Origin: Desulfotomaculum sp.
Lineage (GTDB): Bacteria; Bacillota; Desulfotomaculia; Desulfotomaculales; Nap2-2B
Assembly (NCBI GenBank): GCA_003513005.1
Contig: DOTD01000073.1
Span: forward strand, 22,110-86,109
Reading direction: 5' to 3'
DNA: 64,000 nt
Shown here: piece after piece, positions 2,464 to 54,200 of the stretch
Numbering within the stretch: position 1 is the stretch's first letter
Layout: the number at the start of each line of letters is the position of its first letter
Program-made: the position numbers and the translations under genes
The notes under the pieces: generated by a model
Databases searched by the model: none
What the model was told of the DNA's origin: nothing
The model's input: only the letters and a program-made list of their open reading frames with translations

Positions 2464-2469
2464 ATCCTG

Positions 2470-9185: not shown

Positions 9186-9200
9186 ATCCTTGCTCCTATC

Positions 9201-9248
9201 CCGAAAATTAACTTACATTAGAAGGTCAGCTGCTGAGCGTGCTCATGT
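9201..9248. repeat. Copy A of a ~48-nt intergenic repeat family (copies at 9201, 18104, 37159, 55681)
   Basis: Sequence ccgaaaattaacttacattagaaggtcagctgctgagcgtgctcatgt. It aligns to 55681-55728 at roughly four-fifths identity by hand. Its right end supplies the last codons and stop of acsV. Confidence 0.7.
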
Positions 9249-11141: not shown

Positions 11142-11160
11142 CTTTTTCGCCTACGCCTTT

Positions 11161-12489: not shown

Positions 12490-12516
12490 GGGTATGTCTC
12501 CTTTAAAGATGTTAAA

Positions 12517-14718: not shown

Positions 14719-14751
14719 TTTTTCACCCCTTGCCATTAAAAAATTCTTTTA

Positions 14752-16776: not shown

Positions 16777-17100
16777 CAGTACCGCCTCCTGTTTTTGTGT
16801 TGGTGCTCATATTTTAACAGGTTGTTTGCTTTAAGGCAAGGTTTTTGCCTCCATGTCTTCGATTCATGCGTCAGCACTGCCTCTTCCGGCGTCCCCTCAT
16901 AAGCTGTAGTCCTCAAATCCAGGGGGAACATCTGTTTTTGTTAATCTGCCCTGGTTTGCCGGGGTTGAGCGAAACAACGGCACAGGCGGGCGCTTCAAAG
17001 GCAGCGGCGGGGGCAACCTCAAAGAGACATCCGGGCTCTCCCCAGCCAGCGCCTGTCTTACTATTCTTCCCCCGCAGCCTTCCTGATCGTAGTTCCACCT

Positions 17101-17151
17101 TAAAAAGGCCAGGTCGTCTATGTCAATTACGCCGTCCGCATTAAAGTCCGC
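17101..17151 (-). pseudogene. Orphan dockerin-type Ca-binding repeat remnant
   Basis: The minus-strand frame reads ADFNADGVIDIDDLAFL (D.N.DG.I...D loop plus helix). It is bounded upstream by in-frame stops and followed by low-complexity sequence. Confidence 0.4.
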
Positions 17152-17169
17152 CCGCCTGTCAAAACGGGG

Positions 17170-17529
17170 GACTGAGCCCGGCCTGGTTCACATCTTCTCG
17201 GCAATGGAGAAATGCACGAGCTACAAACCCTGGCACGATAAGACCACCGGCAAGACATCCCTCAAATATGATGGGCAAGGTCTCCATCAAGATGTACGAC
17301 AAATTCGGAATCGTGCTCCGGATCGAAACAACCACCAATGATGTCTCCGGTGTTCAGGCGTATGCGTAAAGTTCAACATCTTGACGTGAGCAGGGATAAC
17401 AAGGTCGCACCGATGAAAAAGAACATTTACAGTCTCTATGTCCTGGCCAGGGGAGAGTTTAACATCCGGGGTTTTCAGAACAAGATGATCCGTAAATTCA
17501 TCGCAAGGCTGTTATCACTACCGGCTTAA
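17170..17529 (+). pseudogene. Frameshifted fragments of a transposase-like/mobile-element-associated gene
   Basis: Three frames together read GLVHIFSAMEKCTSYKPW.., ..SIKMYDKFGIVLRIETTTNDVS and ..RKVQHLDVSRDNKVAPMKKNIYSL..GEFNIRGFQNKMIRKF. The segments are colinear but interrupted by a frameshift, a stop and internal deletions. The family assignment is from memory only. Confidence 0.35.
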
Positions 17530-20468: not shown

Positions 20469-20528
20469 TTTTTACACCCCGCTTTTTTAAAATAGGACAC
20501 CTGCCTTAACAATTAAAAGTTGGCCTAT

Positions 20529-20553
20529 TATAAAAGAGGCGCCCCGCCTTTTA
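20529..20553 (-). terminator. Weak intrinsic terminator after the 1062-aa SLH protein gene
   Basis: The minus strand reads AAAAGGCG-ggg-CGCCTCTTTTAT. Confidence 0.4.
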
Positions 20554-20622
20554 AGACGGGACACCTTTCCAACTTTCAAATTGCCTGGTTATCAGACATT
20601 TTACCTGCTAACTTTCGTTAGA

Positions 20623-23600: not shown

Positions 23601-23811
23601 AATTAAAGAAATTCTGCGCCATTGCATCGCTGATTTCTACCGCCTGTTCCAACTGTTCCGGGGTTAGATTATGCAATTGCCCGAAGAAGGGGCCGAGATC
23701 ACTTATTAATTGCCCATAATCATCACTCGCCAGAGACATACCAGCGCCGGTAATCAGCAAAATTGCCGCAAGGCATAGTGCCAAGATTATTTTTTTGAAG
23801 GATCCTCTCAT
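20623..23811 (-). CDS. Large S-layer-homology-anchored multidomain surface protein
   Basis: Start chosen at ATG 23811 (SD GAGGTGA), giving the signal peptide MRGSFKKIILALCLAAILLITGAGMSLA. The domain order is an unrecognised ~230-aa helical module, an FN3-like domain, Big_5, an Ig-like domain, two FN3-like domains, a Gly10 linker, Big_5, then three SLH repeats. The FN3-like domains read ATLNGNI...YEYKAMAHNSAGWG. The Big_5 (SbsA-type Ig) domains read ..TYTVTIP..WSFTT. The SLH repeats read YTDVPESYWASGVI.., FKDVSPNDWYYGVI.. and FKDDHNISAWARGSV... Confidence 0.8.
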   Translation of the reverse strand: MRGSFKKIILALCLAAILLITGAGMSLASDDYGQLISDLGPFFGQLHNLTPEQLEQAVEISDAMAQNFFNCLSDEEEAALKDTLDIDENTYLNIKIGLVDDVSGYLPNNPSGGATGYQGFLNAIDPVSPDEVSDEEYLNGLINWLHDNSINPETLAQLNSKGISFDEFVMFMVKLSQIQFGPGLVVTDGVRDQFDTILDWLVSVSDGNLTRDDLTACGLTVDCLSAMYDQLTQDQKDQLEAILNTMGLIVQQQTEPEVGTDNGATDITCNSATLNGNIINGADCNERKFQYRQQGDPDWIDAGDETGTFGTGAFSFGLTGLDPDTTYEYKAMAHNSAGWGESQVVDFTTPLCIEPEPPLVESNQPADGATGVDVDADTEISATFDRDVTLNGGGVVIRDGSDILQGVTAALNGRTLNISHPALQFETTYTVTIPDNCVQSGGVGNDEHEWSFTTKQSSDVYCLTLDLQYNDGNDTVTASGTLTRRYGDVPERDVSVAIVIEKGGDIFALGQMLTNQNGEYEFVFSTAGFGAGTYTVMVTANAVQAQGSFTIPGGEITAPTVTTENAADITCSGATLKGNITSNGGADCDQRKFVYRRQGVTEWTDAGVETGTFGIGAFSFNLTGLDLNTSYEYSAMAHNSAGWSVVTKTYFTTLATCQVIPPTVTTSSATNITTGGATLNGNITNVGGADCDQRKFVYRKQGVTEWTDAGVETPGPYGSGAFSFALTGLTSNTPYEYKAMAHNSAGWGEGQVVAFTTTKSGGGGGGGGGGSSCELNVDTYVPAANAENVAIDAVVKVTFKQNIAAVDLTKLSVKDAQNNVVSGVKATVDGKVLTIAHDNFNFNTKYTISIPYGTVKRADCSAQNASLNWSFTTAAEEKKGCAYTDVPESYWASGVIKELCEKGILNGYPDGTFRPRNDITRAEFTKIIAVALGLAEENPATPTFKDVSPNDWYYGVIEAAAKANLVKGYGKGLFKPNAKITREEIAAILIRALGKADEAAANASAVTAFKDDHNISAWARGSVAVAVKEGIIKGYPNGTFGPGKNAIRAEVCAMVSRMLAKL
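21502..21531 (-). repeat. (GGN)10 triplet tract encoding a Gly10 linker
   Basis: The plus strand reads tccgccgccgccaccaccaccaccaccgcc. Confidence 0.9.
21540..22160 (-). repeat. Tandem in-frame duplication (period 309 bp) of an FN3-like domain
   Basis: The landmark gcgtccgtccactctgttacgcc occurs at 21686 and 21995. The flanking DNA is nearly identical by eye. Confidence 0.8.
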
Positions 23812-23836
23812 CGTTTTTATGCTCACCTCACTTTTT

Positions 23837-25612
23837 TTAAATTACCAGGTCCGCTACAACCTGCTCAGCAAATGTTGAATACGTGGCATTAGGATCTTGT
23901 TTTAAGACAAATAGCTCAACCTTATAGGTTCCTGTCTCCGTGGGAGCATTAATATCAAAACTGATATTCGCAACCCCGCCTGCAGCAATATTCTCTGTTT
24001 TGCTAGTAAAGCTCTTTACTTCGATAACCCCATCTGGTCTTGTTTTTGTGACCTGACAGCCTACCACCATCGAGTCGTAATTGATGTTTGTGAGGTTGGT
24101 TAGTATTGCCGTCACCGTCCTAGTGCTACCGCTGCCGGTAATCTGAGGGGCGGAAAATTTTAACGGGAAATTATAGATATGGAAAGTTCCTTCCACTATT
24201 ACCGGATCTCCTACACCGGGCGTAGCTGTTACCTGCACAGTGTAATCAGCCACTACCGGCAGGTCAATCGCAGGTGTGTATAACTGAATAAAGCTGGAGT
24301 CGCTTTCAGGAGTATATGTGGCTACAGTATTGCCTCCTGAATTTTTGATGACTACCGACCAGTTGACGGCTTCTGGTGTTCCTCCCCTGTCGGCTGATCC
24401 GTCAATCATCAGGGGCCGGTCCGGGCTGATATAGGCGCCGGTCAGGTTGACTGTTACATTCAGCTGCTGCGGCGGAGGCGCCGCTAAGGTGGTAAAAGAC
24501 CAGGTGGTCTGATCATTTGTCTGGCCGCCATTAATGACCGCTCCGGCAGGAATGGTGACAGTATATGTCGTGCTATAGGCAAACGCGTTATGCGCAATGG
24601 TCAGTGTCCTGCTGTCTCCCCCAAGGGTGGCGTTCACGCCTGCCACCGGGTTGCTACCCGCATCCTTGATTGTGACTCCGTCAAGATTGCCGACTGTTAC
24701 ATCCATATTAGAAGTTGCCTGCACTGGAGCGTTAAGAGCTACGTTCGTCGCTCCATTAAGGGGCTGAACCGGCGTGAGAACAGGCTTTTCCGGCGGAGGC
24801 GCCGCTAAGGTGGTAAAAGACCAGGTGGTCTGATCATTTGTCTGGCCGCCATTAATGACCGCTCCGGCAGGAATGGTTACAGTATATGTCGTGCTGTAAT
24901 TAAACGCGTTATGAGCAATGGTCAGAGTCTTGTTGTCCACACCCAGGGTGGCGCTCACGCCTGCCACCGGGTTGTTACCCGCGTCCTTGATTGTGACTCC
25001 GGCAAGGTTGACTACTGTTACATCCATATTAGAAATTGCCTGCACTGGAGCGTTAAGAGCTACGTTCGTCGCTCCATTTAAGGGCTGAACCGGCGTGATA
25101 ACAGGCTTTGGCACTACCGCGCCGTTTATAGTGATTGTGTCCTCTGTCGTCGTATGACTAATGCTGGCTCCGCCTTCTCCTCCCAGGAGAGTTGAACCAG
25201 GCACAAAAGAAAGGTTTGCCGTGCCGGCGGCTAATGCTGTAAATGTAATTACTGCCGCCGTGCCGCCACTTCCCGTATATGCATTTGCAGGTACCAGCGC
25301 TATCGAAGCATAGTTAATATTGCCGGTTGTATTATTAATTTCATTTTGAACAGGAAAAGGACTTGTAAAAATATTTCCATCGGTCACCTGATCAGCCCGC
25401 AGCAATGATGGGTTAAACTGCAGGTTGAACTGCGTGCCCATTACAGCGGTCGCATTATTCAAGACTATGTCTACGGTGAACTGGTCACCCACATTCACCG
25501 CAGCAGGCGCCTGAGGGCCGATGGAAGGGACAGCAGCCCAGGCAGGAATTGCAACACAAAGCATTCCCAGCAACAGGGCGATAAACAAAATGGAGATCTT
25601 CCTGTTAAGCAT
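23837..25612 (-). CDS. Secreted cohesin-domain protein (cohesin, two Big_5 domains, C-terminal Ig-like domains); no SLH or membrane anchor
   Basis: Signal peptide ..CVAIPAWA/AVP. Residues ~35-170 fit the cohesin jelly-roll pattern: VNVGDQFTVDIVLNNATAVMGTQFNLQFNPSLLRADQVTDGNIF...GTAAVITFTALAAGTANLSF. Two 107-aa Big_5 repeats follow. Confidence 0.7.
   Translation of the reverse strand: MLNRKISILFIALLLGMLCVAIPAWAAVPSIGPQAPAAVNVGDQFTVDIVLNNATAVMGTQFNLQFNPSLLRADQVTDGNIFTSPFPVQNEINNTTGNINYASIALVPANAYTGSGGTAAVITFTALAAGTANLSFVPGSTLLGGEGGASISHTTTEDTITINGAVVPKPVITPVQPLNGATNVALNAPVQAISNMDVTVVNLAGVTIKDAGNNPVAGVSATLGVDNKTLTIAHNAFNYSTTYTVTIPAGAVINGGQTNDQTTWSFTTLAAPPPEKPVLTPVQPLNGATNVALNAPVQATSNMDVTVGNLDGVTIKDAGSNPVAGVNATLGGDSRTLTIAHNAFAYSTTYTVTIPAGAVINGGQTNDQTTWSFTTLAAPPPQQLNVTVNLTGAYISPDRPLMIDGSADRGGTPEAVNWSVVIKNSGGNTVATYTPESDSSFIQLYTPAIDLPVVADYTVQVTATPGVGDPVIVEGTFHIYNFPLKFSAPQITGSGSTRTVTAILTNLTNINYDSMVVGCQVTKTRPDGVIEVKSFTSKTENIAAGGVANISFDINAPTETGTYKVELFVLKQDPNATYSTFAEQVVADLVI
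24471..25112 (-). repeat. Tandem in-frame duplication (period 321 bp = 107 aa) of a Big_5 domain
   Basis: The string ggcggaggcgccgctaaggtggtaaaagaccaggtggtctgatcatttgtctggccgccattaatgaccgctccggcaggaatggt occurs at 24471 and again at 24792. Confidence 0.9.
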
Positions 25613-25760
25613 GTTATCCTCCTTTACAAAGTTTATTTCCTTCTAAAAAAACTAAGATAATTTCCTTCCAAAACCTTTTATTAGTAAACCGCCAGTTAAG
25701 TTTTTTTCTGCACTCCCCCAGTCATAAAATTTTTAGTAATCTATTTTTTAAAACTTATTG

Positions 25761-26957
25761 TCACATTCCAATATTCTGGGCTACCCTCAACAGGTCGAGA
25801 ATATTTACCTGGCTGTCTTTATTCACGTCGGCCCATAGTGATTCGCCGCTGACAGGACCCATTTTTGAAGCCATCCAGAGCAGATCCAGGATATTAATTG
25901 CCTTGTCTGAGTTCATGTCTCCCAGTCTCAGAGTGACCGGCGCCATTTGTTTGACCTCATCCTGGCCAAGGCTGACCGGCGTATCTACTTCTTTCCAACT
26001 CCAGTCGGCTTTGTCAAAGGATATCTGGCATGCGCCTGCAGGCAGCCCGCTCAGGGTGTAGTAGCCGTTGCTTGCTGATATGGCGGAAGCAACCACCTGG
26101 TTATTGATTTCCGCTTTTATCTCCGAACCGGCGTGGTTTGGTTCCGGATCGGCCTGAGAAACCTTCTCCAGATAAACATAGCCATAAATGCCTGCGCCTT
26201 CTACCGTGCCCAGCTTTTTGAGAATTTCAATCAGGTCATTCCGCTGTTGATCAGTTAACTGGCCGATGGCCGCCTGAAACATGGCGCAGCTAAAACCCAC
26301 TTCTTCCAGATCCTGCCTTGTTATCTTGCTGACCGCTATAATATACTGATCAACCAGCGCATCAAAATTAGCGCATATTATGTTGCCGGCGGCATCTATT
26401 TTTAGCTGCTTAAACATCTGTATAAAAAATTCCAACTGTTCTATTTCTCCCCACCGCCAGGTGTCATTCATCTCAACCCGGTAGTCGTTGGGAAGAGTCA
26501 ACCTCAGTTGCTCGTATAAACCGGCCAAATAATCCAGGTCACGGTTTACCGGCTGAACACTGTTGACAAAACCATCGTACCCGGCTTGGCCGCCGCTCTG
26601 GTGGCTATTGACGTATTCTTCAATAGTCCAGGGCCATCTCGTACCGCCAAAATCCAGGTGAAACTTGTTCATCAGGGCTTGCTGCCGCTGCGCCGTCAGG
26701 ACGGGCTGGTTCCCGTTGATACCGTAAAAAACCGCCTCGTTGAGCTTCTTGCCGATATTCACCAGCTCTTCCATTTCACTGGCGTTTAAAAGAGCCAGCC
26801 CGTCCCAGACATCGCTCATTGCTTCCACACAGTCAGTGCTGTCTAATTCATTTATACCTCCGGCACCGCCGGCCATGGCCTTCTGCTGACTTGAAGCCAT
26901 CAGAAGCACGATTAATAAAACAGCGCTTAAAATGACTGTCCCTGCTTTTTTTACCAT
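25761..26957 (-). CDS. Secreted dockerin protein: the same unrecognised helical module as in the 1062-aa SLH protein, a CarboxypepD_reg-like domain, then a dockerin
   Basis: A signal peptide is present. GGQAGYDGFVNSVQPV and ITRQDLEEVGFSCAMFQAAIGQLTDQQRNDLIEILKKLG parallel GGATGYQGFLNAIDPV and LTRDDLTACGLTVDCLSAMYDQLTQDQKDQLEAILNTMG. The C-terminus reads GDMNSDKAINILDLLWMASKMGP..ADVNKDSQVNILDLLRVAQNIG. Confidence 0.7.
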   Translation of the reverse strand: MVKKAGTVILSAVLLIVLLMASSQQKAMAGGAGGINELDSTDCVEAMSDVWDGLALLNASEMEELVNIGKKLNEAVFYGINGNQPVLTAQRQQALMNKFHLDFGGTRWPWTIEEYVNSHQSGGQAGYDGFVNSVQPVNRDLDYLAGLYEQLRLTLPNDYRVEMNDTWRWGEIEQLEFFIQMFKQLKIDAAGNIICANFDALVDQYIIAVSKITRQDLEEVGFSCAMFQAAIGQLTDQQRNDLIEILKKLGTVEGAGIYGYVYLEKVSQADPEPNHAGSEIKAEINNQVVASAISASNGYYTLSGLPAGACQISFDKADWSWKEVDTPVSLGQDEVKQMAPVTLRLGDMNSDKAINILDLLWMASKMGPVSGESLWADVNKDSQVNILDLLRVAQNIGM

Positions 26958-27008
26958 AAATGTACCTCCTTCCTCTCAAACCTTTTATAACGACTTAACT
27001 TGCAATTA

Positions 27009-27857
27009 TCATTTTCCTATGTTCGCTGCTACCTTGAGCAAGTCGAGAATATTTACCTGACCGTCACCGTTTACATCCGCTTTTGCCGCATCTCCAGACG
27101 CAGGTCCCATTACCGAGGCCATCCAGAGCAGGTCCAGGATATTTATACCGCTGTCGCCGTTCATATCACCCAGATACAAGGTTACTGTCCCGGCGCCGGT
27201 AGACCCGCTTTCTTCCACTGTTACAGTCTTGGTGGTCGTTTTCCAGCTCCCGCCTGTGTGGCTGAATTCCAGCGTGCAACTACCGGCTGACACACCTGTA
27301 ACCGTATATGACCCGTCGGCGGCCGTGACAAATGTGCCGACAACCGATCCTCCCTGTGTAGCCTTCACTTGCGTACCCGAGTCGTCCGCCGGCACTGACG
27401 TACTGATTCTTTGTAAAACGGCAAAGCCGTTTATTGAGATGTTGGGGATAGTCAGGTTTGCCTGCCTTATAGTGAACATTGAGCCCTGGTAAAGTACTGT
27501 TGTTACTGGGCTGGTCTGCGCTGTATAGATAACGGCGCCGATTTTCACTTTGAACTGGATCTGCTTACCGATGTCATTGGCTGTACCATTGACTATCAGC
27601 TTTTCTACAAAAGGATCGCCTACCGGAATGCCGTACTGCCCGTTTTGGAAGGCTAACTCCCCTCTTTTTTCGCCGTCTATATAGGCCTCTATAGTCCCGC
27701 TTGGAACTGGATTATTCAGATCGTCTTTAACTTGCCCATAGAAGCGATCAAAAGTACCGACTAGCTCATCCGCATAGACGGCGCCGGCAAAACCCAGTAT
27801 GAAAACTAATAACAAATAAACAAAAAGAACTTTTTTCACCCAAACCGATCCCATCAT
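27009..27857 (-). CDS. Secreted dockerin protein: shared N-terminal beta module, a CarboxypepD_reg-like domain, then a dockerin
   Basis: Start chosen at ATG 27857 (SD GGGTGGTGG). The C-terminus reads GDMNGDSGINILDLLWMASVMGP..ADVNGDGQVNILDLLKVAANIG. Confidence 0.7.
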   Translation of the reverse strand: MMGSVWVKKVLFVYLLLVFILGFAGAVYADELVGTFDRFYGQVKDDLNNPVPSGTIEAYIDGEKRGELAFQNGQYGIPVGDPFVEKLIVNGTANDIGKQIQFKVKIGAVIYTAQTSPVTTVLYQGSMFTIRQANLTIPNISINGFAVLQRISTSVPADDSGTQVKATQGGSVVGTFVTAADGSYTVTGVSAGSCTLEFSHTGGSWKTTTKTVTVEESGSTGAGTVTLYLGDMNGDSGINILDLLWMASVMGPASGDAAKADVNGDGQVNILDLLKVAANIGK

Positions 27858-27867
27858 TTCCACCACC

Positions 27868-29157
27868 CTACTTAATTGAGCCAAGGAGCCTGTCGATCAT
27901 TGCCGCAGCTTCGGCGCGGGTCACATTTTTCCCAGGCTTGAAGGAACCATCCGGATAACCTGTGATAACCCCTTTCTGCACCGTTTGATCAACTGCTTCG
28001 GCAGCCCATCCGGGAATATCGCCGCTGTCGTTAAACTGCGCTTTCTGCACTGTTTGCTGGGCTGATTTTTCGTTTAAAACACGCGCCATGATTGTGGCCA
28101 GCTCAACACGGGTGATTTGCTTCTGCGGCATAAAAACGGTTTTTCCTTCTTTTCCAGGATACCCTTTAAGCAAACCGGCGTGAACCACGGCAGCCACAGG
28201 ATAACCTGCCCATTCCGGGATGCCGGCGGCGTCACTGAATCCGGATATATCCTGGTTGCTTCCGTTTTCCAGGTCCAGAGCCCTGTCGATAATGGCGGCG
28301 CATTCCGCCCGGCTGATTGGGTTATTCGGCCGGAAGGTCTTATCTTCATAACCGGAGATTACACCCTGTCCGGCCATTTTTTGAATTACCGCCGCTGCCC
28401 AGTGCCCCTGGATATCGGATAAGACAACTGTTTGTTGTTCCGGATGACTAATCTTATAATCAAATACAGAAACTGCGCTGAAGAGATTGTCTTTTAACGA
28501 AACTGCCTTAATTACAGTGTCTTGACTAATGCTGATGGGCTCTTTGTATTCTTTTCTGGCGCTGCTGGTCTTAGGATCGGTACTGTCGGAAGTGAAGTAG
28601 ATTACTGTCTGGGCAGTGGAACAGGACAGCTCAATTTTGACGTTTTCTGCGTATGTTCCCGCTGCCGGACTGGCAGCCGGAGAGGCGGGCGCCTGCGTTG
28701 AGCCCTGTCCTCCGGAACCTCCGCCCTGCTGACCTGAACCGCTTGAGGTATAATTTACAGTGATCAGCAGCCGCGAATCCAACCCTTCGAAGCCGCCATC
28801 CTTAAAAGTGATTTCCTTTTCTGCGCCGGCATTATATTCTTTGCCGTCAATTACAGCTTTAAAACTGATTGCTTTACCAATGTCGCTGCTGTCAATAGGG
28901 GTTATGTTCGCCTTATTTGCCTGATCCAGCGAAATATCAACCTGCCCGCCGGCAACAGCCGCATCGGTTACATATTTGTCTCCAATAAATACTTCCAGGC
29001 TTCCCGTGTTTACGGCGCTTCCTTTCTGGTCAACCACTTTGCCCAAGATCACCATTGGCATCAAGGGCATTTCCGCCGCCAGCGCCGTATAAGCAATACC
29101 GAACAAGAGCAGGAAGCACAGCAATACAGCAGTCAGTTTGTTTGTTGCTTTTTTCAG
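27868..29157 (-). CDS. SLH-anchored surface protein: shared N-terminal beta module, a Gly/Ser/Gln linker, a chitobiase-C-terminal-like (Fn3-associated) domain, then three SLH repeats
   Basis: The track start (TTG at 29124) gives no charged n-region and has no SD. An in-frame CTG at 29157, 6 nt after AAAGGAGGAG, gives (M)KKATNKLTAVLLCFLLLFGIAYTALA/AE, a textbook signal peptide. Confidence 0.7.
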   Translation of the reverse strand: MKKATNKLTAVLLCFLLLFGIAYTALAAEMPLMPMVILGKVVDQKGSAVNTGSLEVFIGDKYVTDAAVAGGQVDISLDQANKANITPIDSSDIGKAISFKAVIDGKEYNAGAEKEITFKDGGFEGLDSRLLITVNYTSSGSGQQGGGSGGQGSTQAPASPAASPAAGTYAENVKIELSCSTAQTVIYFTSDSTDPKTSSARKEYKEPISISQDTVIKAVSLKDNLFSAVSVFDYKISHPEQQTVVLSDIQGHWAAAVIQKMAGQGVISGYEDKTFRPNNPISRAECAAIIDRALDLENGSNQDISGFSDAAGIPEWAGYPVAAVVHAGLLKGYPGKEGKTVFMPQKQITRVELATIMARVLNEKSAQQTVQKAQFNDSGDIPGWAAEAVDQTVQKGVITGYPDGSFKPGKNVTRAEAAAMIDRLLGSIK

Positions 29158-29240: not shown

Positions 29241-30263
29241 TTACAGGCTGTCCAGCAAGCGGTCAATCATTGCTGCGGCCTCCGACCGGGTCACTTCTTT
29301 TTGCGGACTGAAGGTACCGTCTGAATATCCTTTTACCAACCCGTACTCAGCGGCGGAGCGAACTTCCTCCCGGGCCCATTCCGGAATCTTGTCCTGGTCC
29401 GAAAAGTTTGCCAGATCGCTGTTTTTCTGCAATCCCTTTTGCGAAGCAGCCCGGCTTAAAATAACCGCCAGTTCCGTCCTTGTAACTTTCTTGTCCGGCC
29501 CAAAGTCCTTGCTTCCGTCGGACACCGGATAACCGGAGAACAGCCCGGCAGCTACCGCCTGGGCGACAGCTCCCTGCGCCCACTCGGGAATTGCGCCTTT
29601 GTCCCCGAACACAGAAAGCGCCTCCGGACCGGCTGCAGGCAAGTCCAGGGCGCGGGACAGGATTAGTGCGCATTCCGCCCGGCTAACCGGCTTGTCCGGA
29701 CAAAAAGTCCCGTCCGGATAACCGCTAATCAGCCCCCGGTTAACCATCCGGCTAATTGAGCCTTCCGACCAGTGACCGGTAAGATCTGAAAAGGGGGTTA
29801 GCTTGCTGACCGACGGATCTTGTCCACCCGGACAACTTTCGTCAACGATCAGGGTGATTGCCTGCTTTGCTTTTGATTCCCAGACAATTTTTGGCGGATC
29901 TGTTTTGGCCGGGCATTCCCGGCCGGCAGATTCCACTTTGAAAGTAACTTCCCTGCCAGTTAGATCCTCGTTTGCTTTGTAAACCAGTAATCTGGCTATG
30001 TAGGGATCTTCGGCGGGCAAACCAAATTTTCCTTCCTGAAAAGGCAACTGCCCGCATATCTCACCGTCGACATAAGCCTTCACCGTTCCTGAAGCCACCG
30101 GCTGCCCCGTCTCCGTCTTCACCATACCGTAATACATAGCAGGATACTGCATCTGCTGCTGGTTCTGACCTTCTTCCGCCAGGGCTGCCGTGCCGATAAA
30201 AAAAACCACCGCAACAAGAGCCAAAGATGTTAAAAACCACTGCTGCTTTAACTTGAGAGTCAT
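29241..30263 (-). CDS. SLH-anchored surface protein: shared N-terminal beta module plus three SLH repeats
   Basis: Signal peptide ..FFIGTAALA/EE. YYGMVKTETGQPVASGTVKAYVDGEICGQLPFQEGKFGLP parallels FYGQVKDDLNNPVPSGTIEAYIDGEKRGELAFQNGQYGIP in the 27009 gene. The SLH repeats read FSDLTGHWSEGSI.., FGDKGAIPEWAQGAV.. and FSDQDKIPEWAREEV... Confidence 0.8.
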   Translation of the reverse strand: MTLKLKQQWFLTSLALVAVVFFIGTAALAEEGQNQQQMQYPAMYYGMVKTETGQPVASGTVKAYVDGEICGQLPFQEGKFGLPAEDPYIARLLVYKANEDLTGREVTFKVESAGRECPAKTDPPKIVWESKAKQAITLIVDESCPGGQDPSVSKLTPFSDLTGHWSEGSISRMVNRGLISGYPDGTFCPDKPVSRAECALILSRALDLPAAGPEALSVFGDKGAIPEWAQGAVAQAVAAGLFSGYPVSDGSKDFGPDKKVTRTELAVILSRAASQKGLQKNSDLANFSDQDKIPEWAREEVRSAAEYGLVKGYSDGTFSPQKEVTRSEAAAMIDRLLDSL

Positions 30264-30294: not shown

Positions 30295-30372
30295 GTACCT
30301 TACTCGCGGGAGACAAGCTCCCGCAAGTAAGGTACTGGAAACGATCTTTTTAAAAACAGATGTGCTGTTTTT
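30295..30372 (-). terminator. Double stem-loop terminator region after the 1015-aa gene
   Basis: The minus strand reads AAAAACAG-cacat-CTGTTTTT immediately after the stop. A near-perfect ~18-bp stem follows: GTACCTTACTTGCGGGAG-cttgt-CTCCCGCGAGTAAGGTAC. Confidence 0.6.
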
Positions 30373-33300
30373 TTAAGGCTGGACATCCGCCGATTTCAGA
30401 ATTGTGTTTGAAGTCAGGGTCTGCGGCGAAGTTATATACAGCCAGTATGCGTCACCGTTGAACCCGTATAGCGAGGAGTCTACATAATAGCCGCCATATG
30501 TGTTGCCGTTGACGCTTGCTGCTTCGAAGGCCCCCAGGTTGCCCATTGAATTCGGGGCGCCTTGTAATGTAATAGCCACAGGACCGTACGGACCGGGCGA
30601 GGTAAAGCTGTTCAGACCTTTGCCGCCCCAGTTGACCAGAGTCTTGCAGTCGGCGCAGGCTGATCCCAGCATCCGGGAAAGTGTATCTCCCTGGGTCAGC
30701 GCGTCACCACAGACGCATTCAGTATTCGGCGGGCAGGGGTATGTTACCGTGCCATATGCGGTTGTAAGCTGCTCGCCAGCCCGATAATGAATGTCCTCAC
30801 TAAAGGACGGTCCCACCAAGTTCCAGCCAAGGTTCAGCGGACGCGAACCGGGCATTTCCACACCTGTGGAGCGGGCGAAGACATATCTTGCCTGAACACA
30901 ACTTTCGGAACCGCAATCATTGGATGTGCAGTAACCGCCATTGGTCCAGTCCTGAGTCATATTAAGCACGTAGCCGTACTGCGGCCTCAACTGGTAAGCC
31001 GGGTCAGTAATCTGCGCCCACGGCCCGCCAGGTAAGTTCTTGTCGTAAATCAGCATGTCGGAGAAGTATGATCCGCCCAGCAGGGCGCTCATAGTGCCGG
31101 CGCCGGCCAGTTCCTTCGGTGTGGAAATAAGCTGCCAGGTATTCGGCCTTAATACACGCACCAGTTCAACGGGGCTGTTGTAAGTAATTAGTTTGGTGCC
31201 CCAAACGTGCTTTTCGGGGTCGACAACCTTCACTGCTAACGGACCGCAGTAACTCCACGGCACGTAGACAAAGAAGTCGGACTTGGTCTCATTTATATTG
31301 GGATGGAGGTAGGTGTCATTATTTCCTTTGCTGCCGGCCATGTTAAAGGCCAGCCTGTTGCCATCCGTAAAGGCCTCAAGATCCCAGGAAGCTTCGCTAA
31401 TAACAGTTTGCAGAGACGAATCTAACAGCTCAACACGCAGGGTGGCGGAAGTGCGGTTAGGATCTGCCAGAATCGTTCCGAGTAACCTCGGATCGTAATG
31501 TACAGATATCTTTACCGGCCAACCGGCCTTGGCGGGTTCTTCGTAATTGGGGTCATTGAGGTACTGACTTGGAATCTGATCGCAGGGAACCAGCGGTGTA
31601 ACCTCAAGAATGCATATCAGGCAGTTTACTTCCAGGCAGCAGATTGCATCAAGCTGGTTCACACCGTTGATAATGGCGCCGGCTATAATTCTTACATTAC
31701 CGCCCTCGTCGGCCTTGAAATAGACTGTAACTTCAGATGCGCCGGGCGCGATCTGCGTGTAGTCAATTTCATGCGCTCCCGAGTCATTGCCGTCAAGAAT
31801 TGTGCCGAATGGCGCCTCGGGGTTAATTGTGCCGGTTGGGTCATCGGGGTCACATACTATGCTCTTTAAATCAATCTTCAGAGCGGCTAAATTATCCCCG
31901 CAGGGTACTTTATTCGGCGTTGCGTTGCCAAATTTATCACGCAGGATAATACGCACGGGTACATATGCGCTGCAGTCCACCTGAGTACCTACCTGGGTGA
32001 CGGTGATGTACTTGGGATCGCCGGCCACAGGTAAAATAGTTTCCGGATCGGAATAGACCCAGGCATGTTCAAGAGCTTCTAAATCCTCGTTGAAAAAGCC
32101 GCGGAGGAAATGGTTGTCGTCTGTTTCTCTTACATAGGCCATATCCTCCAGAGACTCCACCGGCACCAGATAGTCGGCGGTGTCAAAGTAGTATTGGACG
32201 CTTGCATCCTGTGGGGTATCTTTAACTTCGATGGTCCTGGCCACGATGCTATGACTTACGCCAGCGACACCCGGGACCACGATCGAAGCTTCGAAGAAAC
32301 CCCTGTCAATAATTAGATGCGTAATGGGATCGGTTACATTGACCGTGTGTGTGATCACAGGCGCAATGCAATCGCCTGAACTGGGATCTTGATGCGTATA
32401 CGGTTCACCAAGGCAGCCATTGTCTACAATATCGCCCAGGTTGGGATCGCTTACACATGCCGGTACAAAGTACGGTGTGCCAGCCGGGCAAAGAGCGCAC
32501 GGCGGGTATACAGGATTGGTAGTTTGCACGACATATTCAATAATAACCGGCCATGTGGTAAGCGGCCACGGGTAATCAAGCCATGTTTCCGTTTGCTGCC
32601 CAAATTCATCCAGGAGGTAACCACCCTCCGTCCTGAATACATGACCTGTGACGTTTACTCTGGCGCCCGCTACTTTACAATCATCAATGGTATCAATAGA
32701 TATCCTGCCAACTGTCAGAACCACATCCAGGTTCAGGCATTTAGGCGTAAAGCAGCTCTTGCTGTGTTTGATATTAACGCAATAATCCTCTTTCGGGGCT
32801 TTCGTGTTGTGAACAACCAGCCTTTCAATCCTAAAGTCGGTTACCTTGCCGATTGCCGGGATTAACTGTCTCTCAACAGTCAGGTATACACGGTCGATTA
32901 CCGAACCGTCACTCAGGGTTATGTTCTCACGAAGGTCCGGTATTACCTTTGTCAGATATTCAACGCCGTTCACTGTAACCCAGACATCTACGGACTTGCC
33001 CTGAAGGCCGTCCAGGTTGTGATCCTCCGGGTCGATTGTCGTGGGAGTGTAAGCCGGGTCAATAGCCTCATTAGCGTCATTTACCGCCGGATCTGCTGCA
33101 GTGCTGTAACGCATCGGGCCAAATGGAAAATCAAGAACTATGCTGTTGAGAGTCGAGCCGTCCGGTGCAGTTGCCAGTTTACCAAGGAGATTGCCCTCGG
33201 CAAAGAGATTCACATCAATATCCATATTTGTGCCCGTGACGGTGTAAGCATAGGTATGGTCAGCCTTAACCACATAGCTCGGGCCGCCGGTTATCGGGTT

Positions 33301-33420
33301 GTCGCCAGCTACCATATTGATGCTCTCGGCAAGGGCTATGCCGGCAAAAATAAAACAGGATAAGGCAATTATTGCCAGGATAACGGCTATTCTGCCCCAC
33401 TTGGTTACCCTTTTTGTCAC
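30373..33420 (-). CDS. Orphan ~1015-aa cysteine-rich secreted protein (one Big_1-like Ig segment; otherwise no recognisable domain or anchor)
   Basis: Start chosen at GTG 33420 (8 nt after AAGGAGGG), giving (M)TKRVTKWGRIAVILAIIALSCFIFAGIALA/ES. I count 26 Cys after the signal peptide, including CXXC-like pairs PPCALCP, ECVCG and SACADC. There is no SLH, dockerin, cohesin or TM anchor. Confidence 0.75.
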   Translation of the reverse strand: MTKRVTKWGRIAVILAIIALSCFIFAGIALAESINMVAGDNPITGGPSYVVKADHTYAYTVTGTNMDIDVNLFAEGNLLGKLATAPDGSTLNSIVLDFPFGPMRYSTAADPAVNDANEAIDPAYTPTTIDPEDHNLDGLQGKSVDVWVTVNGVEYLTKVIPDLRENITLSDGSVIDRVYLTVERQLIPAIGKVTDFRIERLVVHNTKAPKEDYCVNIKHSKSCFTPKCLNLDVVLTVGRISIDTIDDCKVAGARVNVTGHVFRTEGGYLLDEFGQQTETWLDYPWPLTTWPVIIEYVVQTTNPVYPPCALCPAGTPYFVPACVSDPNLGDIVDNGCLGEPYTHQDPSSGDCIAPVITHTVNVTDPITHLIIDRGFFEASIVVPGVAGVSHSIVARTIEVKDTPQDASVQYYFDTADYLVPVESLEDMAYVRETDDNHFLRGFFNEDLEALEHAWVYSDPETILPVAGDPKYITVTQVGTQVDCSAYVPVRIILRDKFGNATPNKVPCGDNLAALKIDLKSIVCDPDDPTGTINPEAPFGTILDGNDSGAHEIDYTQIAPGASEVTVYFKADEGGNVRIIAGAIINGVNQLDAICCLEVNCLICILEVTPLVPCDQIPSQYLNDPNYEEPAKAGWPVKISVHYDPRLLGTILADPNRTSATLRVELLDSSLQTVISEASWDLEAFTDGNRLAFNMAGSKGNNDTYLHPNINETKSDFFVYVPWSYCGPLAVKVVDPEKHVWGTKLITYNSPVELVRVLRPNTWQLISTPKELAGAGTMSALLGGSYFSDMLIYDKNLPGGPWAQITDPAYQLRPQYGYVLNMTQDWTNGGYCTSNDCGSESCVQARYVFARSTGVEMPGSRPLNLGWNLVGPSFSEDIHYRAGEQLTTAYGTVTYPCPPNTECVCGDALTQGDTLSRMLGSACADCKTLVNWGGKGLNSFTSPGPYGPVAITLQGAPNSMGNLGAFEAASVNGNTYGGYYVDSSLYGFNGDAYWLYITSPQTLTSNTILKSADVQP

Positions 33421-33536
33421 TAAGATATCCCTCCTTATAAGAAATAGTAACATCACGCGTGGTAACTTTTCTTTAAAAAACTACTGCTAAACTACTGCCG
33501 CTCTTTCTTCAAACTCCATTCCCTGCCTCTGAGTAA

Positions 33537-33590
33537 CCACCTCCTTCAAAAACTATGATAAACCTTTGCTTAATTACACTTAAGCAAAGG
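33537..33590 (-). promoter_or_regulatory. 5'-leader elements of the 1015-aa gene: a perfect 11-bp hairpin followed by an orphan Shine-Dalgarno-like GAAGGAGGTGG
   Basis: The minus strand reads CCTTTGCTTAA-gtgtaa-TTAAGCAAAGG, then TTTATCATAGTTTTT, then GAAGGAGGTGG. No correctly spaced start codon follows; the nearest ATG is 17 nt away and opens a 10-codon frame. Confidence 0.5.
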
Positions 33591-33614
33591 CAATCAGCAA
33601 GATCTCCGGATCCT

Positions 33615-33644
33615 AAAATACTTATGCTCTTTCTTATAGGTCAA
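33615..33644 (-). promoter_or_regulatory. Candidate promoter for the 1015-aa gene
   Basis: The minus strand has TTGACC, an 18-nt spacer, then TATTTT. This would give a ~190-nt leader. Confidence 0.3.
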
Positions 33645-34128
33645 GAACACCTATATCTGGAAAACATTACCCCAAATAATTCTTCTTATGGCTGCCTGCT
33701 GGGCAAGATCCCTTAATTTACATATCTATCATAACTTCGAGAAATAAATTGGAAATCCTTCTGGAAAAATGATTATTTTGCAGGTAATTTCAACCAGCCC
33801 CCACCCGGAGGAAATCAATGGCGCCGCTCGCTGATAATCGATATCTTTTTCAATCAATCTCCCACACTTTTTATATTGTTTGGACCGGAGGAAATATCAC
33901 CTGAAAAGTTATGAGATACTTTCCTCCTTTACCATTGATCTACTAATCCATACTTATTTAGACACCGACAGTCAGAAAAAAGTTCCAGTTCTTTTAAAAA
34001 ATTTATTGCTGTTTTTACTTTAAAAAGAATTGCTAATTAATTAAACAATTAAACAATCCTGCTTTCAGTTTATTCAGCTCATTTTTTTATATAGCGCCGC
34101 CGCTCACATTTAATTTATTTATAAAAAA

Positions 34129-34554
34129 TTAACCTCCGCCAAGCTGGCGGCCTGGTCTATGGTTTATTAAATCTACGTACAGAATAACCAGGGTAAGGAA
34201 GAAAAGACCGGAAGAAATCAGGCAAAAAACACAGAAACTCTTTAATATCTGTGACTGATAAATGATCAGGGCGGAGCAGATGAATGCGCTAAAAAGGGCT
34301 AAAAGAAGGGCGAAAACCTGACACCACCTGCTTTGCCGGGCAAAGAAGCTGAAAATAACCAGCAAGGCGGCGGCAGATGCGCCCGCAAGGGCGAAAGAAA
34401 CTTTTCTTGCAACAAGCAGAACCGGCTCGCTGCAGCTTCTTGTGTAGCAAAACAACTGTGACAAAGGAGTGAAAAAACCATTGAAATACAGATAAAGCAA
34501 AAGAGCGGCATTCAAAAGAGAAAGCAGCGCAGCCCACATGGTCAAGGGAAGCAA
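34129..34554 (-). CDS. Small polytopic membrane protein, VKOR/DsbB-like thiol oxidoreductase candidate
   Basis: 141 aa with about four TM helices. A loop Cys pair (FCYTRSC) follows TM1, and CVFC sits at the start of the last TM helix, as in vitamin K epoxide reductase homologues. Confidence 0.45.
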   Translation of the reverse strand: MLPLTMWAALLSLLNAALLLYLYFNGFFTPLSQLFCYTRSCSEPVLLVARKVSFALAGASAAALLVIFSFFARQSRWCQVFALLLALFSAFICSALIIYQSQILKSFCVFCLISSGLFFLTLVILYVDLINHRPGRQLGGG

Positions 34555-34607: not shown

Positions 34608-35069
34608 TTATTTTTTTAAAGAAACGCAGACCGGACAATAACCGTTGTCGACCAGGACTGTTGACCTTGCTTCATCCCAGACTACTTTGGCGCCCAAAGA
34701 CTCCGCGAGCGCTTTCAGGGGCACGTAAAGCCGTCCTCCGATGATTATTGCGCTGACATCCAAATTGATTTTCGCGCCGTTCTTAAATGCCGTCGCGCTG
34801 CCGGGGGTTAAGCGGATAATATCCTGCTTTCTTGTTATAGTTACGGTTCTGGTAACGGCGTTCCATTTTACTTCAGCCCCCAGTTGTTCTGAAAACACCC
34901 TGCAGGAAACCAATGTATGTCCATTCTCGATGAGAATATCGGAGCTGTTAAGAATCTGACCATTGACATTCACATGAATCTGGCGGGCCATTCCAGGCGC
35001 CGGAAAGAAAACGCTTTGGAAAAAAACCATGACTGCTGCAAAAACCAGGAATATCTTTAAACGATACAT
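34608..35069 (-). CDS. Secreted copper-amine-oxidase N-terminal ('stalk') domain protein with a C-terminal CPVC
   Basis: A signal peptide is present. VNGQILNSSDILIENGHTLVSCRVFSEQLGAEVKW.....IIGGRLYVPLKALAESLGAKVVWD fits the Cu_amine_oxidN1 repeat pattern. The protein ends ..DNGYCPVCVSLKK. Confidence 0.65.
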   Translation of the reverse strand: MYRLKIFLVFAAVMVFFQSVFFPAPGMARQIHVNVNGQILNSSDILIENGHTLVSCRVFSEQLGAEVKWNAVTRTVTITRKQDIIRLTPGSATAFKNGAKINLDVSAIIIGGRLYVPLKALAESLGAKVVWDEARSTVLVDNGYCPVCVSLKK

Positions 35070-53477: not shown

Positions 53478-54200
53478 ATGGGAGGTGGCATAGTGCTACC
53501 AGGCTTATGGACCTTGGCAGTTTTGTCGTTATTAAATGGTCTTTTGCTGCTGGTATCGTACATTGCCAATAACACTTTTCCTCAGCCTCTTTCCGAAGAG
53601 GAGGAAAAGAAATGCCTGGTTCAACTCACCAAAGGAAGCGAGGAGGCAAGAAACAAGCTCACTGAACATAACTTAAGGCTCGTAGCCCATATCGTAAAAA
53701 AATACGACAATACCGGTGAAGATTTAGACGATTTGATCTCGATCGGCACAATAGGATTAATCAAGGCTATCAAAACATTCAACCCTTCAAAGGGAACCCG
53801 TCTGGCAACCTATGCGGCGCGCTGCATCGACAATGAAATATTAATGCATCTGAGATTTATCAAGAAAGTTCGCTCGGAAGTTTCGCTTTATGACCCTATA
53901 GGGCTGGATAAGGAAGGCAACGAAATTACTTTAATCGACGTACTTGGCACCCACTCGGAAATCGTTGCTGAGACAGTAGAAAGCCTTTTCGAGAAAAAAA
54001 GACTGCTGGAAAAAATATGCAAGCTGAGCAAAAGGGAAAAAAGAGTGCTGGAACTCCGCTTCGGCCTGGGAACCGACAGGTATGACACACAACGCGAGAT
54101 AGCCAAGAAACTTGGAATATCACGATCGTATGTTTCACGAATTGAGAAACGTGCGCTGAATAAGCTGACAAAGGAATTTAACGCCGAGGGCTGCCAGTAA
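53478..54200 (+). CDS. sigK: Sporulation sigma factor K (pro-sigma-K), uninterrupted
   Basis: [25 protein letters not shown]....[35 protein letters not shown] closely parallels the pro-sigma-K leader and region 2. The start may be GTG 53493. Confidence 0.85.

Follow-up and report, generated by a model that had tools for sequence, protein, structure and literature searches.

What part could a large exported protein, rich in cysteine and lacking any wall anchor, play at the head of a gene cluster that encodes SLH, dockerin and cohesin proteins? The question is raised by the window analysed here, a 64-kb stretch of Desulfotomaculum DNA, in which a first, sequence-only reading had singled out such a gene. 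The answer we favour, and to which we give slightly less than an even chance, is that the protein forms the outer, structural member of an S-layer-like surface assembly of two components, in which a separate SLH adaptor tethers it. The broader view, of an anchor-less structural protein at the surface that would work with SLH and dockerin proteins, is partly supported: it fits the gene order, the acidic, all-beta, multidomain character of the protein and the elements flanking the gene.

The open reading frame was confirmed on the minus strand (30373..33456), and its actual start was placed at the GTG at 33420, because a ribosome-binding site, AAGGAGG (33430..33436, minus; conserved in 8 loci), lies 9 nt upstream and this is also the residue at which homologues start. 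The resulting coding sequence (30373..33420, minus) specifies 1015 amino acids, in keeping with the length of about 1015 first proposed. A clean signal peptide had also been claimed, and sequence inspection and homologue comparison bear this out: residues 1-31 (33328..33420, minus) form a Sec signal peptide in which K/R residues (3-10) precede a hydrophobic core (11-28) and ALA followed by E (29-32). Its motif L(C/S)CFxFAGxALA is conserved branch-wide, and its identity to mid-distance homologues (0.50) is the highest of any region. The mature chain (984 aa, 107 kDa, pI 4.4) is acidic and, together with its beta-rich, multidomain character, falls within the 40-200 kDa size class of exported S-layer proteins. 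Codon bias in the gene (Nc 49.7) is among the window's strongest, like that of the ACS/CODH genes. The gene is not, as first thought, the largest of its cluster, since the SLH protein encoded at 20623..23826 is longer, at 1067 aa.

No means of attachment could be recognized in the chain. Searches of Pfam and NCBIfam at E <= 1 returned zero matches, so SLH repeats (PF00395) are absent, and no PDB sequence match was obtained. There is no Pfam match to cohesin or dockerin (PF00963, PF00404) and no DxDxDG motif; a C-terminal LPXTG sortase signal is missing, the sole occurrence being an internal LPVAG at residue 463 and the C-terminus reading ...KSADVQP; and there is no second transmembrane segment, the only other hydrophobic stretch (587-613) being a confident beta strand in the model. 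The claim that the protein has no SLH, dockerin, cohesin, LPXTG or transmembrane anchor thus agrees with both sequence and model. The gene had also been called an orphan, and this must be revised: an exhaustive profile search recovered a family that, clustered at 50% identity, comprises at least 42 clusters. Among them is a sister branch free of cysteine, whose members are rich in A/T/V/S, as S-layer proteins typically are. The family, from anaerobic Firmicutes, appears to be undescribed. Lineage-specific insertions fall in its N-terminal and middle domains, and conservation is highest in the C-terminal modules and the signal peptide.

A confident AlphaFold2 model, built from a 40-sequence alignment, is almost all beta (pLDDT 84.7, pTM 0.62) and consists of about seven stacked Ig-like beta-sandwich domains, in place of the single Ig stretch originally noticed. 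That stretch, described as Big_1-like, lies within a confidently modelled sandwich at residues 471-612 (31585..32010, minus), whose C483 and C600 co-occur in 9/9 homologues. The window protein has no Pfam match to Big_1 (PF02369); the distant homologue P0040 falls short of the cut-off (32.1 against 34.9 bits), and its Big_1-like stretch maps to window residues ~250-460 and not to 489-585, so that the region first noticed can be called Ig-like solely at the level of the model. A suggested check by remote homology and Foldseek gave no confident family: the matches are generic multi-Ig proteins, namely adhesins, alpha-2-macroglobulins and S-layer proteins, with TM-scores of 0.1-0.2. Heading the list are the Ig domains of the adhesin PrgB and alpha-2-macroglobulins, among them 8beg_A (E = 5.7e-13), 4rtd and 5a42; S-layer proteins (Sap and those of Nitrosopumilus) are also present, and adhesins match at least as well as these.

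Such matches speak for a rival reading, in which the protein is a large adhesin or scaffold that forms no lattice. Its Ig-like domains would project from the wall in a row, tethered by the SLH adaptor, and would bind the cohesin and dockerin proteins, a substrate or a partner cell. The best hits are indeed Ig-like domains of adhesins (PrgB and the Bap BSP domain) along with DUF11/Big-1 proteins. We regard this explanation as somewhat unlikely: a pTM of 0.62 over 1015 residues suggests a defined domain arrangement and not a floppy stalk, and no binding domain is recognizable. Two conserved C-terminal modules (residues 753-857 and 858-1015; 30376..31164, minus) also bear on the matter. Each contains one WxL(I/V) strand and one aromatic strand, both are among the best-conserved parts of the family, and neither resembles the cohesin alignment of the locus (hhalign probability 0.1% each), which argues further against the adhesin. 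The internal duplication that had been proposed for this region is weakly supported. With the full family, hhalign gave a probability of only 1%; insertion-free distant members did yield a collinear match over 69-73 columns (E = 0.0014-0.0033), at a probability of 7-10%. We propose that the modules are a candidate docking or assembly region.

A plausible partner for such a region is encoded immediately downstream. The candidate adaptor (29241..30263, minus) is a 340-aa exported protein comprising an N-terminal domain of about 110 aa, with an invariant C70, and three SLH repeats (E = 6e-39). In all 16 branch loci with enough downstream sequence, a gene for this N-terminal domain lies 197-307 nt downstream of the family gene (16/16); the domain is usually fused to three SLH repeats, which are found in the same or the next gene. 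The pairing holds down to ~30% identity of the large protein, and the adaptor domain is conserved better than the large protein itself. With so constant an SLH partner, the cysteine-rich protein probably makes up the outer, structural part of a surface layer built from two proteins. Beyond the adaptor, domain matches reveal a second SLH protein (27868..29124, minus), with an N-domain, CHB_HEX_C and three SLH repeats, and then the rest of the cluster (18267..27884, minus), which encodes two dockerin proteins, a cohesin and Big_5 protein, a TIG-M10 protease-dockerin and the 1067-aa FN3/Big_5/SLH protein already mentioned. The order, from family gene to adaptor-domain/SLH gene to further SLH, dockerin and cohesin genes, is strict, and that of the cluster is conserved in L001-L005.

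Two of the rivals draw strength from this neighbourhood. Cohesin, dockerin and protease components are typical of display systems, as an adhesin would require. The 1067-aa protein, with its own three SLH repeats and Ig-like domains, follows the usual design of a Firmicute S-layer protein and is a more conventional S-layer candidate than the cysteine-rich protein. It could be the true S-layer, in which case the latter would be an accessory envelope protein that stress or a signal induces by way of an ECF sigma factor. We think this quite improbable, in view of the fact that the family gene and adaptor remain paired in loci where a protein of the 1067-aa type is not seen nearby (L009, L011).

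The cysteines weigh against an S-layer, since proteins of the classical bacterial type contain few or none. The earlier count of 26 in the mature chain (27 in total) was correct, every motif string quoted was found in the sequence, and the content of 2.66% is the highest among the window's exported proteins (the range of those being 0.3 to 1.7%). Conservation in homologues had been put forward as a check, and 17 of the 26 are invariant across the six closest. Set against a sister branch with none, these 26 residues (2.7%) appear to be an addition to a fold that exists there cysteine-free. They include clusters of the form CC-x4-C-x2-C (594-603), C-x5-C-x-C (896-904) and CxxC (922-925). Gain and loss affect two cysteines of one domain at a time (322/351 in 3/3 cases, 483/600 in 9/9 and 922/925 in 25/27), and the cysteines most likely form disulfides that stabilize individual domains and loops. 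Across the family, mature-chain counts are even in 14 members and odd in 18; without an even-number bias, a simple model in which all cysteines pair intramolecularly fails. Some cysteines may also link separate molecules.

Absence of an even bias, together with the close CxxC, CxC and CC spacings, would also suit clusters (594-603, and 896-904 with 922-925) that bind a metal such as Zn or Fe instead of forming disulfides. Metal binding would fit a reducing habitat, given that exported proteins are usually not folded oxidatively in obligate anaerobes (PMC12453122). It is nevertheless unlikely in our estimation, for the paired gain and loss within single domains speaks against it, as does the lack of evident His or Asp partners for the clusters and of a CxxCH haem motif in the protein. 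The CxEQ motif of thioester proteins is absent as well; as to the [YFL]C-hydrophobic-[DNEQ] motif of Gram-positive TED adhesins, the YCVN at 213 sits in an all-beta region without a helical or TED-like domain. A further argument against metal comes from next door, where a VKOR-like membrane protein adjoins the family gene in three loci. In the window this is a 141-aa protein (34129..34554, minus) with four transmembrane segments, a CxxxxC in a loop and a CxxC in TM4. Its match to PF07884 (VKOR) is below threshold (E = 0.01; 16.4 bits against a cut-off of 27.5), although it spans positions 4-132 of the 134 in the profile; the protein has the topology and the two cysteine motifs, in agreement with the CXnC plus CXXC pattern of VKOR (PMC12453122), and three orthologues keep these cysteines without exception. 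It has no match in NCBIfam or the PDB, and a homologue search returned close, unannotated relatives only. Upstream of this gene lies that of an exported protein (34608..35069, minus), identified by its Cu_amine_oxidN1 domain, with a conserved C-terminal GYC(P/S)VC tail.

Several elements flanking the gene are conserved across loci. An ECF-sigma-type promoter-like motif, GGAACTT-N17-TCTAA (GGAAC-N18-GTCTAA), is located ~540 nt before the start codon (33958..33986, minus), occurring once in the 64-kb window against an expectation of 0. In 11 further loci it recurs ahead of the family gene, at a distance of 205-712 nt; across the 12, spacing is identical, the spacer sequence is divergent and the motif is essentially unique per locus. 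ECF promoters are recognized by a GGAAC-type -35 element, a rigid spacer and a conserved -10 (PMC6411747; PMC3397946), all of which the candidate displays, with no sigma gene linked to it. The motif suggests conditional and not constitutive expression, as would fit an adhesin; its agreement with the ECF consensus (-35 GGAACTT, rigid spacer) is likewise the second point in favour of an induced accessory protein beside a 1067-aa S-layer.

Type of promoter also bears on whether the protein belongs to the spore. Cysteine-rich proteins are typical of spore coats, and the host makes spores, as indicated by SpoIIE, SpoIID and a pro-sigma-K gene in the window, so a disulfide cross-linked protein of the exosporium or an appendage might be imagined. 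We hold this to be highly improbable, as the Sec signal peptide and the SLH partner point to the vegetative cell wall and no sigma-E or sigma-K type motif is conserved across the loci, which share an ECF-type motif instead.

Between promoter motif and start codon runs a long untranslated leader, a putative 5' UTR (33421..33957, minus), with conserved sequence blocks, no credible ORF and no Rfam match. The sequence-only reading had described it as structured and as part of the largest upstream non-coding region of the window (672 bp). Neither statement survives: the fold is not significant against shuffled sequence (z = -1.8 and -1.1), and the gap upstream of the true start, 708 nt, is one of the two largest, the other (16777..17497, without a convincing ORF) being 721 nt. 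The leader carries two Shine-Dalgarno-like elements. The first, AAAGGAGGAAAG (33919..33930, minus), follows the -10 motif by ~30 nt and is kept in the window and loci L001-L003; in two of these, L001 and L002, a truncated Cu_amine_oxidN1-like reading frame comes after it. The second, the STAB-SD-like GAAGGAGGTGGT (33536..33547, minus), precedes the start codon by 116 nt, and 13 loci have its pattern GAA[AG]G[AG]GGTG at 99-162 nt before the start, 4 of them with two copies spaced 49 nt apart. By analogy, the elements are probably mRNA stabilizers, although the doubled copies could instead be protein-binding sites.

After the stop codon there are two hairpins, as the proposal of a double-hairpin terminator implied. 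Hairpin 1 (30352..30372, minus), directly after the stop, has a short, weak, A/U-rich stem followed by a U-run; hairpin 2 (30295..30335, minus) is a perfect 18-bp stem with a 5-nt loop and without a U-tail (z = -6.5), kept in 6/6 close loci with compensatory changes. Strong hairpins occur downstream of the gene in nearly all of more than 20 loci, and the stem that follows the stop codon measures 18-20 bp across loci. The Shine-Dalgarno-like leader and conserved 3' hairpin would favour high expression biased towards the first gene. These stabilizer-like elements, the hairpin and the first position in the cluster sit poorly with an adhesin, and since the conserved leader and hairpin belong to the family gene and not to that of the 1067-aa protein, they also weaken the case for the latter as the true S-layer.

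Under the two-component reading, the host would be a spore-forming Firmicute using the Wood-Ljungdahl pathway, and transcription would begin at the ECF-sigma-type promoter and continue across 200 nt or more of leader with Shine-Dalgarno-like elements, the 18-20-bp hairpin leaving more transcript of the first gene than of those downstream. Once exported by Sec and cleaved, the acidic 107-kDa product, with some seven beta-sandwiches and no wall anchor, would form the lattice or platform. The ~110-aa domain of the adaptor would grip the two C-terminal modules and its three SLH repeats would bind the secondary cell-wall polymer, with the cohesin and dockerin proteins displayed on or beside the platform. 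Against an S-layer stand the 26 cysteines, the ECF-type motif, the 1067-aa SLH protein and the low TM-scores of 0.1-0.2. A bolder version, to which we assign only a small probability, is an oxidatively or covalently stabilized S-layer on the Gram-positive wall of a strict anaerobe, in which odd cysteine counts and the invariant C70 of the adaptor suggest that thiol chemistry may lock an anchor-less, adaptor-held lattice to itself or to the adaptor, with the VKOR-like protein as helper and the ECF promoter as switch.

The significance of the locus is that a family with no relative in Pfam or NCBIfam or by structure opens a surface cluster that is strictly conserved in little-studied, spore-forming Firmicutes of acetogenic or syntrophic type, described largely from metagenomes. 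Were the two-component reading true, it would provide a natural cysteine-rich outer layer in a reducing habitat, with implications for the way in which cysteine-rich proteins for export are folded by obligate anaerobes. The ECF-type promoter motif, Shine-Dalgarno-like leader and 3' hairpin may offer a compact example of one operon gene expressed far above its neighbours, and the pair of adaptor domain and C-terminal modules could serve as a new protein-display handle for anaerobes.

Several known systems resemble parts of this one. PrgB, the Bap adhesins and bacterial alpha-2-macroglobulins are long Ig-like or MG chains and the best Foldseek matches, but the present protein has no LPXTG, CxEQ or helical thioester domain, and the matches have an identity of 7-10%. 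Sap and EA1 of Bacillus anthracis and SbsB and SbsC of Geobacillus are, as here, acidic, exported, beads-on-a-string arrays of beta-sandwiches; they differ in carrying the anchor in the same chain and essentially no cysteine, and the TM-scores of Sap (9g93_A, 6qx4_B), ~0.1, place the match at the level of the generic Ig fold. HPI of Deinococcus radiodurans is a protein of ~1000 aa with Ig-like domains that forms a very stable layer, and the SLH protein SlpA is a separate gene product. Chain length, Ig domains and a separately encoded SLH partner are shared with our system; Deinococcus is, however, diderm, no homology was detected, and HPI is not among the top Foldseek matches. For the leader, the likeness is to the STAB-SD mRNA stabilizer that Agaisse and Lereclus reportedly described in 1996 for cry3A of Bacillus thuringiensis, where an GAAAGGAGG-type Shine-Dalgarno-like sequence lies ~100-160 nt before the start in a long leader, as the sequence here does, in a gene for which high expression is expected.

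The closest parallel is SlaA/SlaB of the Sulfolobales, in which a large, multidomain, beta-rich outer protein without an anchor is attached by a smaller, separate one; assembly and anchoring are thus split between two proteins, and beads-on-a-string architecture is common in S-layer proteins (PMC12175726). The two systems have no sequence relation, and ours, a candidate one, belongs to a bacterium, with three SLH repeats on wall polymer in place of a membrane helix. If the adaptor grips the C-terminal modules and its SLH repeats bind the polymer, the same division of labour would apply to two adjacent, co-conserved genes, and the separation of lattice from anchor would extend from the archaeal example to monoderm bacteria.

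The cysteine-rich exported protein encoded at positions 30373..33420 (minus strand) had been described as an orphan, a description that does not survive an exhaustive HMMER profile search. Word-indexed searching retrieved only five relatives, at 49-86% identity, and its repetition with a 40-sequence profile returned the same six proteins and nothing further; a profile of the close relatives, run with HMMER against 1.84 billion representative proteins, found 42 clusters, 19 of them at E < 1e-30. Family members are mostly 700-1000 residues long and have the whole architecture in common, the best-conserved regions being two C-terminal modules and the signal peptide. Two MAGs of unclassified Bacillota, 'Firmicutes bacterium UBA5766' and 'UBA4053', contain relatives. 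Beside the cysteine-rich branch, which includes the window protein, stands a sister branch (P0029, P0040, P0041, P0036 and P0043) with 0-3 cysteines per protein, at most two of them in the mature chain, and a composition rich in Ala, Thr, Val and Ser, as in classical S-layer proteins. Cysteine-free genes of this branch lie at 10001-12118 of locus L008 (GCA_000429345.1, GC 63%) and at 3927-5957 of locus L013, with Xre-type HTH genes upstream, a Big_5/CopC protein downstream, and very strong downstream hairpins (140-nucleotide MFE of -70 and -82 kcal/mol). GCA_000429345.1 may represent a cultured type strain, and the L008 member in this deposited NCBI assembly might serve for experiments.

The open reading frame at 30373..33456 (minus strand) is real. 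The GTG at 33420 is its true start, because AAGGAGG lies 9 nucleotides 5' of this codon and all homologues begin at the equivalent residue, and the product has 1015 amino acids. The clean signal peptide seen in the sequence-only reading was confirmed as residues 1-31 (33328..33420, minus strand), of typical Gram-positive Sec type with Lys/Arg at positions 3-10, a hydrophobic core and an ALA/E junction. Across the cysteine-rich branch this peptide (KW.K..VILAVVAL(C/S)CFxFAGxALA, with the shared motif L(C/S)CFxFAGxALA) is as conserved as any mature domain, a degree of conservation that is uncommon among Sec signals and may point to a particular constraint on targeting or on translation initiation. 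With a pI of 4.4 and a mass of 107 kDa, the mature chain is acidic; as claimed, it lacks a C-terminal LPXTG and a second membrane segment. Pfam and NCBIfam gave zero hits at E <= 1 for the protein, and profile searches likewise produced no match. A motif scan of the protein for haem CxxCH, thioester CxEQ, LPXTG and Ca-binding DxDxDG found none of them, and BLAST detected neither a paralogue in the window nor an internal repeat. Codon usage shows a modestly strong bias (Nc 49.7), close to that of the acetyl-CoA synthase/CODH genes. The latter set (CdhC/ACS beta, CdhD and RACo) occupies 6603..14736 (minus strand); a pro-sigma-K-like sporulation sigma factor is encoded at 53478..54200 (plus strand), and other parts of the window encode SpoIIE and SpoIID. 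These genes mark the host as a spore-forming anaerobe using the Wood-Ljungdahl pathway.

Searches for remote homology gave no confident match to a known family. Sequence searches of the PDB, with the single protein and with family profiles, yielded nothing meaningful. AlphaFold2 supplied with six close homologues produced an unusable model (pLDDT 39), and with the 40-sequence alignment one of pLDDT 84.7 and pTM 0.62, in which, signal helix aside, nearly everything is beta strand, folded into about seven sandwiches; confidence is low in lineage-specific insertions such as residues 100-135. Foldseek comparison of the whole model with the PDB and viral models returned only generic multi-Ig chains (TM 0.1-0.2, identity 7-11%), among them PrgB Ig domains, CD109, alpha-2-macroglobulins, complement proteins and Bap, as well as the Sap and Nitrosopumilus S-layers. 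At the level of a predicted model, these matches fix the class of fold and not the function. Only one Big_1-like Ig stretch had been recognized by eye; its residues 489-505 do sit within a confident Ig-like domain (471-612), but the model holds about seven sandwiches and Pfam makes no Big_1 call. Sub-threshold matches to Big_1, Big_7 and Invasin_D3, obtained with distant relatives, map to a different domain at about residues 240-460.

The count of 26 cysteines in the mature chain (27 in total) was correct, and every quoted motif lies where expected. No other exported protein of the window reaches its 2.66% Cys, a 1067-residue SLH protein having 18 cysteines and an M10 protease 11; mature chains of the cysteine-rich branch carry 11-46. 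The cysteines are conserved within the branch: the six closest homologues share 17 of the 26 without exception, and 25-30 of 40 family members have C223, C336 and C922/C925. They nonetheless supplement a fold which, in the sister branch, does without them. Several are gained or lost jointly within single domains (322/351, 483/600, 922/925 and the group 831/836/896/902/904), a pattern that fits disulfides or shared metal sites. Mature-chain counts are even in 14 cases and odd in 18; this absence of an even excess implies that not every cysteine belongs to an intramolecular pair, and the remainder may be free thiols, intermolecular bonds or metal ligands.

The suggested duplication of the C-terminal region fared less simply. 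When residues 750-856 and 857-1015 are compared profile to profile across the entire family, the match lacks significance (probability 1%), but in distant members lacking the cysteine-rich insertions the two modules are collinear over 69-73 columns (E 0.0014-0.0033, probability 7-10%), and the aligned stretch takes in the motifs R.L..GWN.L, G.GNLA and G.(Y/W)V.M. Secondary-structure elements follow a parallel order in the two modules of the model. An ancient tandem duplication is plausible. Identity of these modules with cohesin or dockerin was rejected; they are unrelated to the cohesin of the same locus.

The non-coding region upstream of the gene, put at 672 bp and called the largest in the window, is a 708-nucleotide gap that ranks among the two largest but is exceeded by the 721 nucleotides at 16777..17497, which separate a Uma2-family gene from the gene of a CarboxypepD_reg protein and contain no convincing ORF. 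The 708-nucleotide gap contains no credible ORF, and neither the leader nor the 3' region matches Rfam. A structured leader was not borne out, the folding scores (z = -1.8 and -1.1 against shuffled sequence) being non-significant. At 33958..33986 (minus strand) lies an ECF-sigma-type promoter-like motif, GGAACTT-N17-TCTAA, the sole copy in the 64-kb window, where none is expected. Eleven further loci (including L001 9292-9320, L002 4270-4298, L003 9295-9323, L004 701-729, L007 409-437, L014-L016, L019 and L022) carry it 205-712 nucleotides before the family gene, and it is found 5' of every family gene with enough upstream sequence, with identical spacing and a divergent spacer. E. coli sigma-E recognizes GGAACTT as its -35 element, spacer rigidity is a requirement of ECF sigma factors, and a Thermoanaerobacter ECF promoter has the -10 element CGTCTA (PMC6411747, PMC3397946). 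No linked sigma gene was found. Inspection ruled out a sigma-54 reading, whose GG/GC spacing does not fit, and sigma-70 sites were dismissed as no more numerous than in shuffled sequence and not conserved.

Two Shine-Dalgarno-like elements, GAAGGAGGTGGT and GAAAGGGGTG, lie at 33536..33547 and 33919..33930 (minus strand), with equivalents in 13 loci, where GAA[AG]G[AG]GGTG precedes the start codon by 99-162 nucleotides; four loci carry two copies 49 nucleotides apart. They resemble the STAB-SD stabilizer of the cry3A leader in position and sequence and, by this analogy, may be mRNA stabilizers of that type or regulator binding sites. Downstream of the stop codon, the two hairpins read as a double terminator are present: the nearer has a weak A/U stem and a U-run, and the second a perfect 18-bp stem without a U-tail (z = -6.5), retained in six loci, where three of its pairs show compensatory changes. 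Strong 3' hairpins accompany the family gene in nearly all loci, the cysteine-free branch included. From the promoter-like motif, the Shine-Dalgarno-like elements and these hairpins we infer a stable, abundant transcript of the first gene with limited downstream read-through.

The gene directly upstream in the window, and otherwise only in its two closest relatives (L001 and L002), encodes a 141-residue protein with four TM segments (34129..34554, minus strand), whose loop CxxxxC is invariant and whose TM4 contains a CxxC. Clostridial VKOR homologues show such a pattern of loop CXnC and CxxC and have been assayed by complementing an E. coli dsbB mutant (PMC12453122). The Pfam VKOR match spans the profile at 16.4 bits, below the threshold of 27.5; further searches brought no confirmation, the homologue search giving close, unannotated relatives only, and a VKOR identity is a lead, not a finding. 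An exported Cu_amine_oxidN1-domain protein with a conserved C-terminal tail GYC(P/S)VC is encoded at 34608..35069 (minus strand). Truncated copies of this type (...IKLLINGxEAEGGSSVLLKDGRIFV) lie inside the family-gene leaders of L001 (about 9400-9560) and L002 (about 4380-4540), and the copy is deleted from the window leader.

Gene order is identical in the window and L001-L005: the family gene is followed by a 340-residue protein with three SLH repeats (29241..30263, minus strand), a CHB_HEX_C and SLH protein, two dockerin proteins, a cohesin and Big_5 protein, a Big_5/FN3/SLH protein of about 1000 residues, and a TIG-M10 protease-dockerin. The order begins likewise around a 34%-identical relative, and SLH-bearing genes still come next in more distant members. 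A tblastn survey of 28 loci identified as the invariant neighbour the N-terminal domain of about 110 residues of the 340-residue protein, hereafter the adaptor. A check of co-occurrence placed this domain 197-307 nucleotides 3' of the family gene in each of the 16 informative loci from the cysteine-rich branch, with SLH repeats in the same protein or an SLH gene following. It has one invariant cysteine and surpasses the large protein in conservation (65% versus 50% identity; 44% versus 34%). Nothing speaks more strongly for joint action of the two products than the tightness and long life of this gene pair. The best-supported reading, which we favour tentatively, is a two-component S-layer-like surface assembly, in which the large protein would form the outward structural subunit and the adaptor would hold it to the wall via its SLH repeats. 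The main rival retains the same SLH-adaptor tether and makes the large protein a non-lattice adhesin or scaffold; we regard it as rather unlikely.

The family gene had been called the first and largest of its cluster. It does head the conserved order, but the 1067-residue FN3/Big_5 protein (20623..23826, minus strand), with three C-terminal SLH repeats, is bigger and, on its domain content, a candidate for a conventional S-layer protein within the same cluster. Were this the true S-layer, the cysteine-rich protein would be an accessory induced through the ECF-type promoter, an explanation that we consider improbable. Surface-glycan genes flank the region (54229..59940 and 560..6596, both minus strand), encoding Bac_transf, a GT4 glycosyltransferase, an 850-residue Wzy_C+TPR protein, UDP-GlcNAc 2-epimerase, a DegT aminotransferase, a UDP-sugar dehydrogenase and an ABC-2 transporter; they may reflect wall-polymer synthesis or protein glycosylation. 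A similar Wzy_C+TPR/Wzz/Bac_transf set, at L011 2220-8346, adjoins the distant family member of that locus.

The general kind of protein is already familiar, namely a Gram-positive wall-associated multi-Ig surface protein. The family itself is undescribed, combining an anchor-less multi-Ig chain with a dedicated SLH adaptor, an unusual wealth of cysteines and a conserved set of regulatory elements of ECF type. A split of roles between two S-layer proteins is documented for SlaA/SlaB (PMC12175726), and the S-layer-like assembly proposed here would resemble that system in dividing assembly and anchoring between the large protein and its SLH adaptor.
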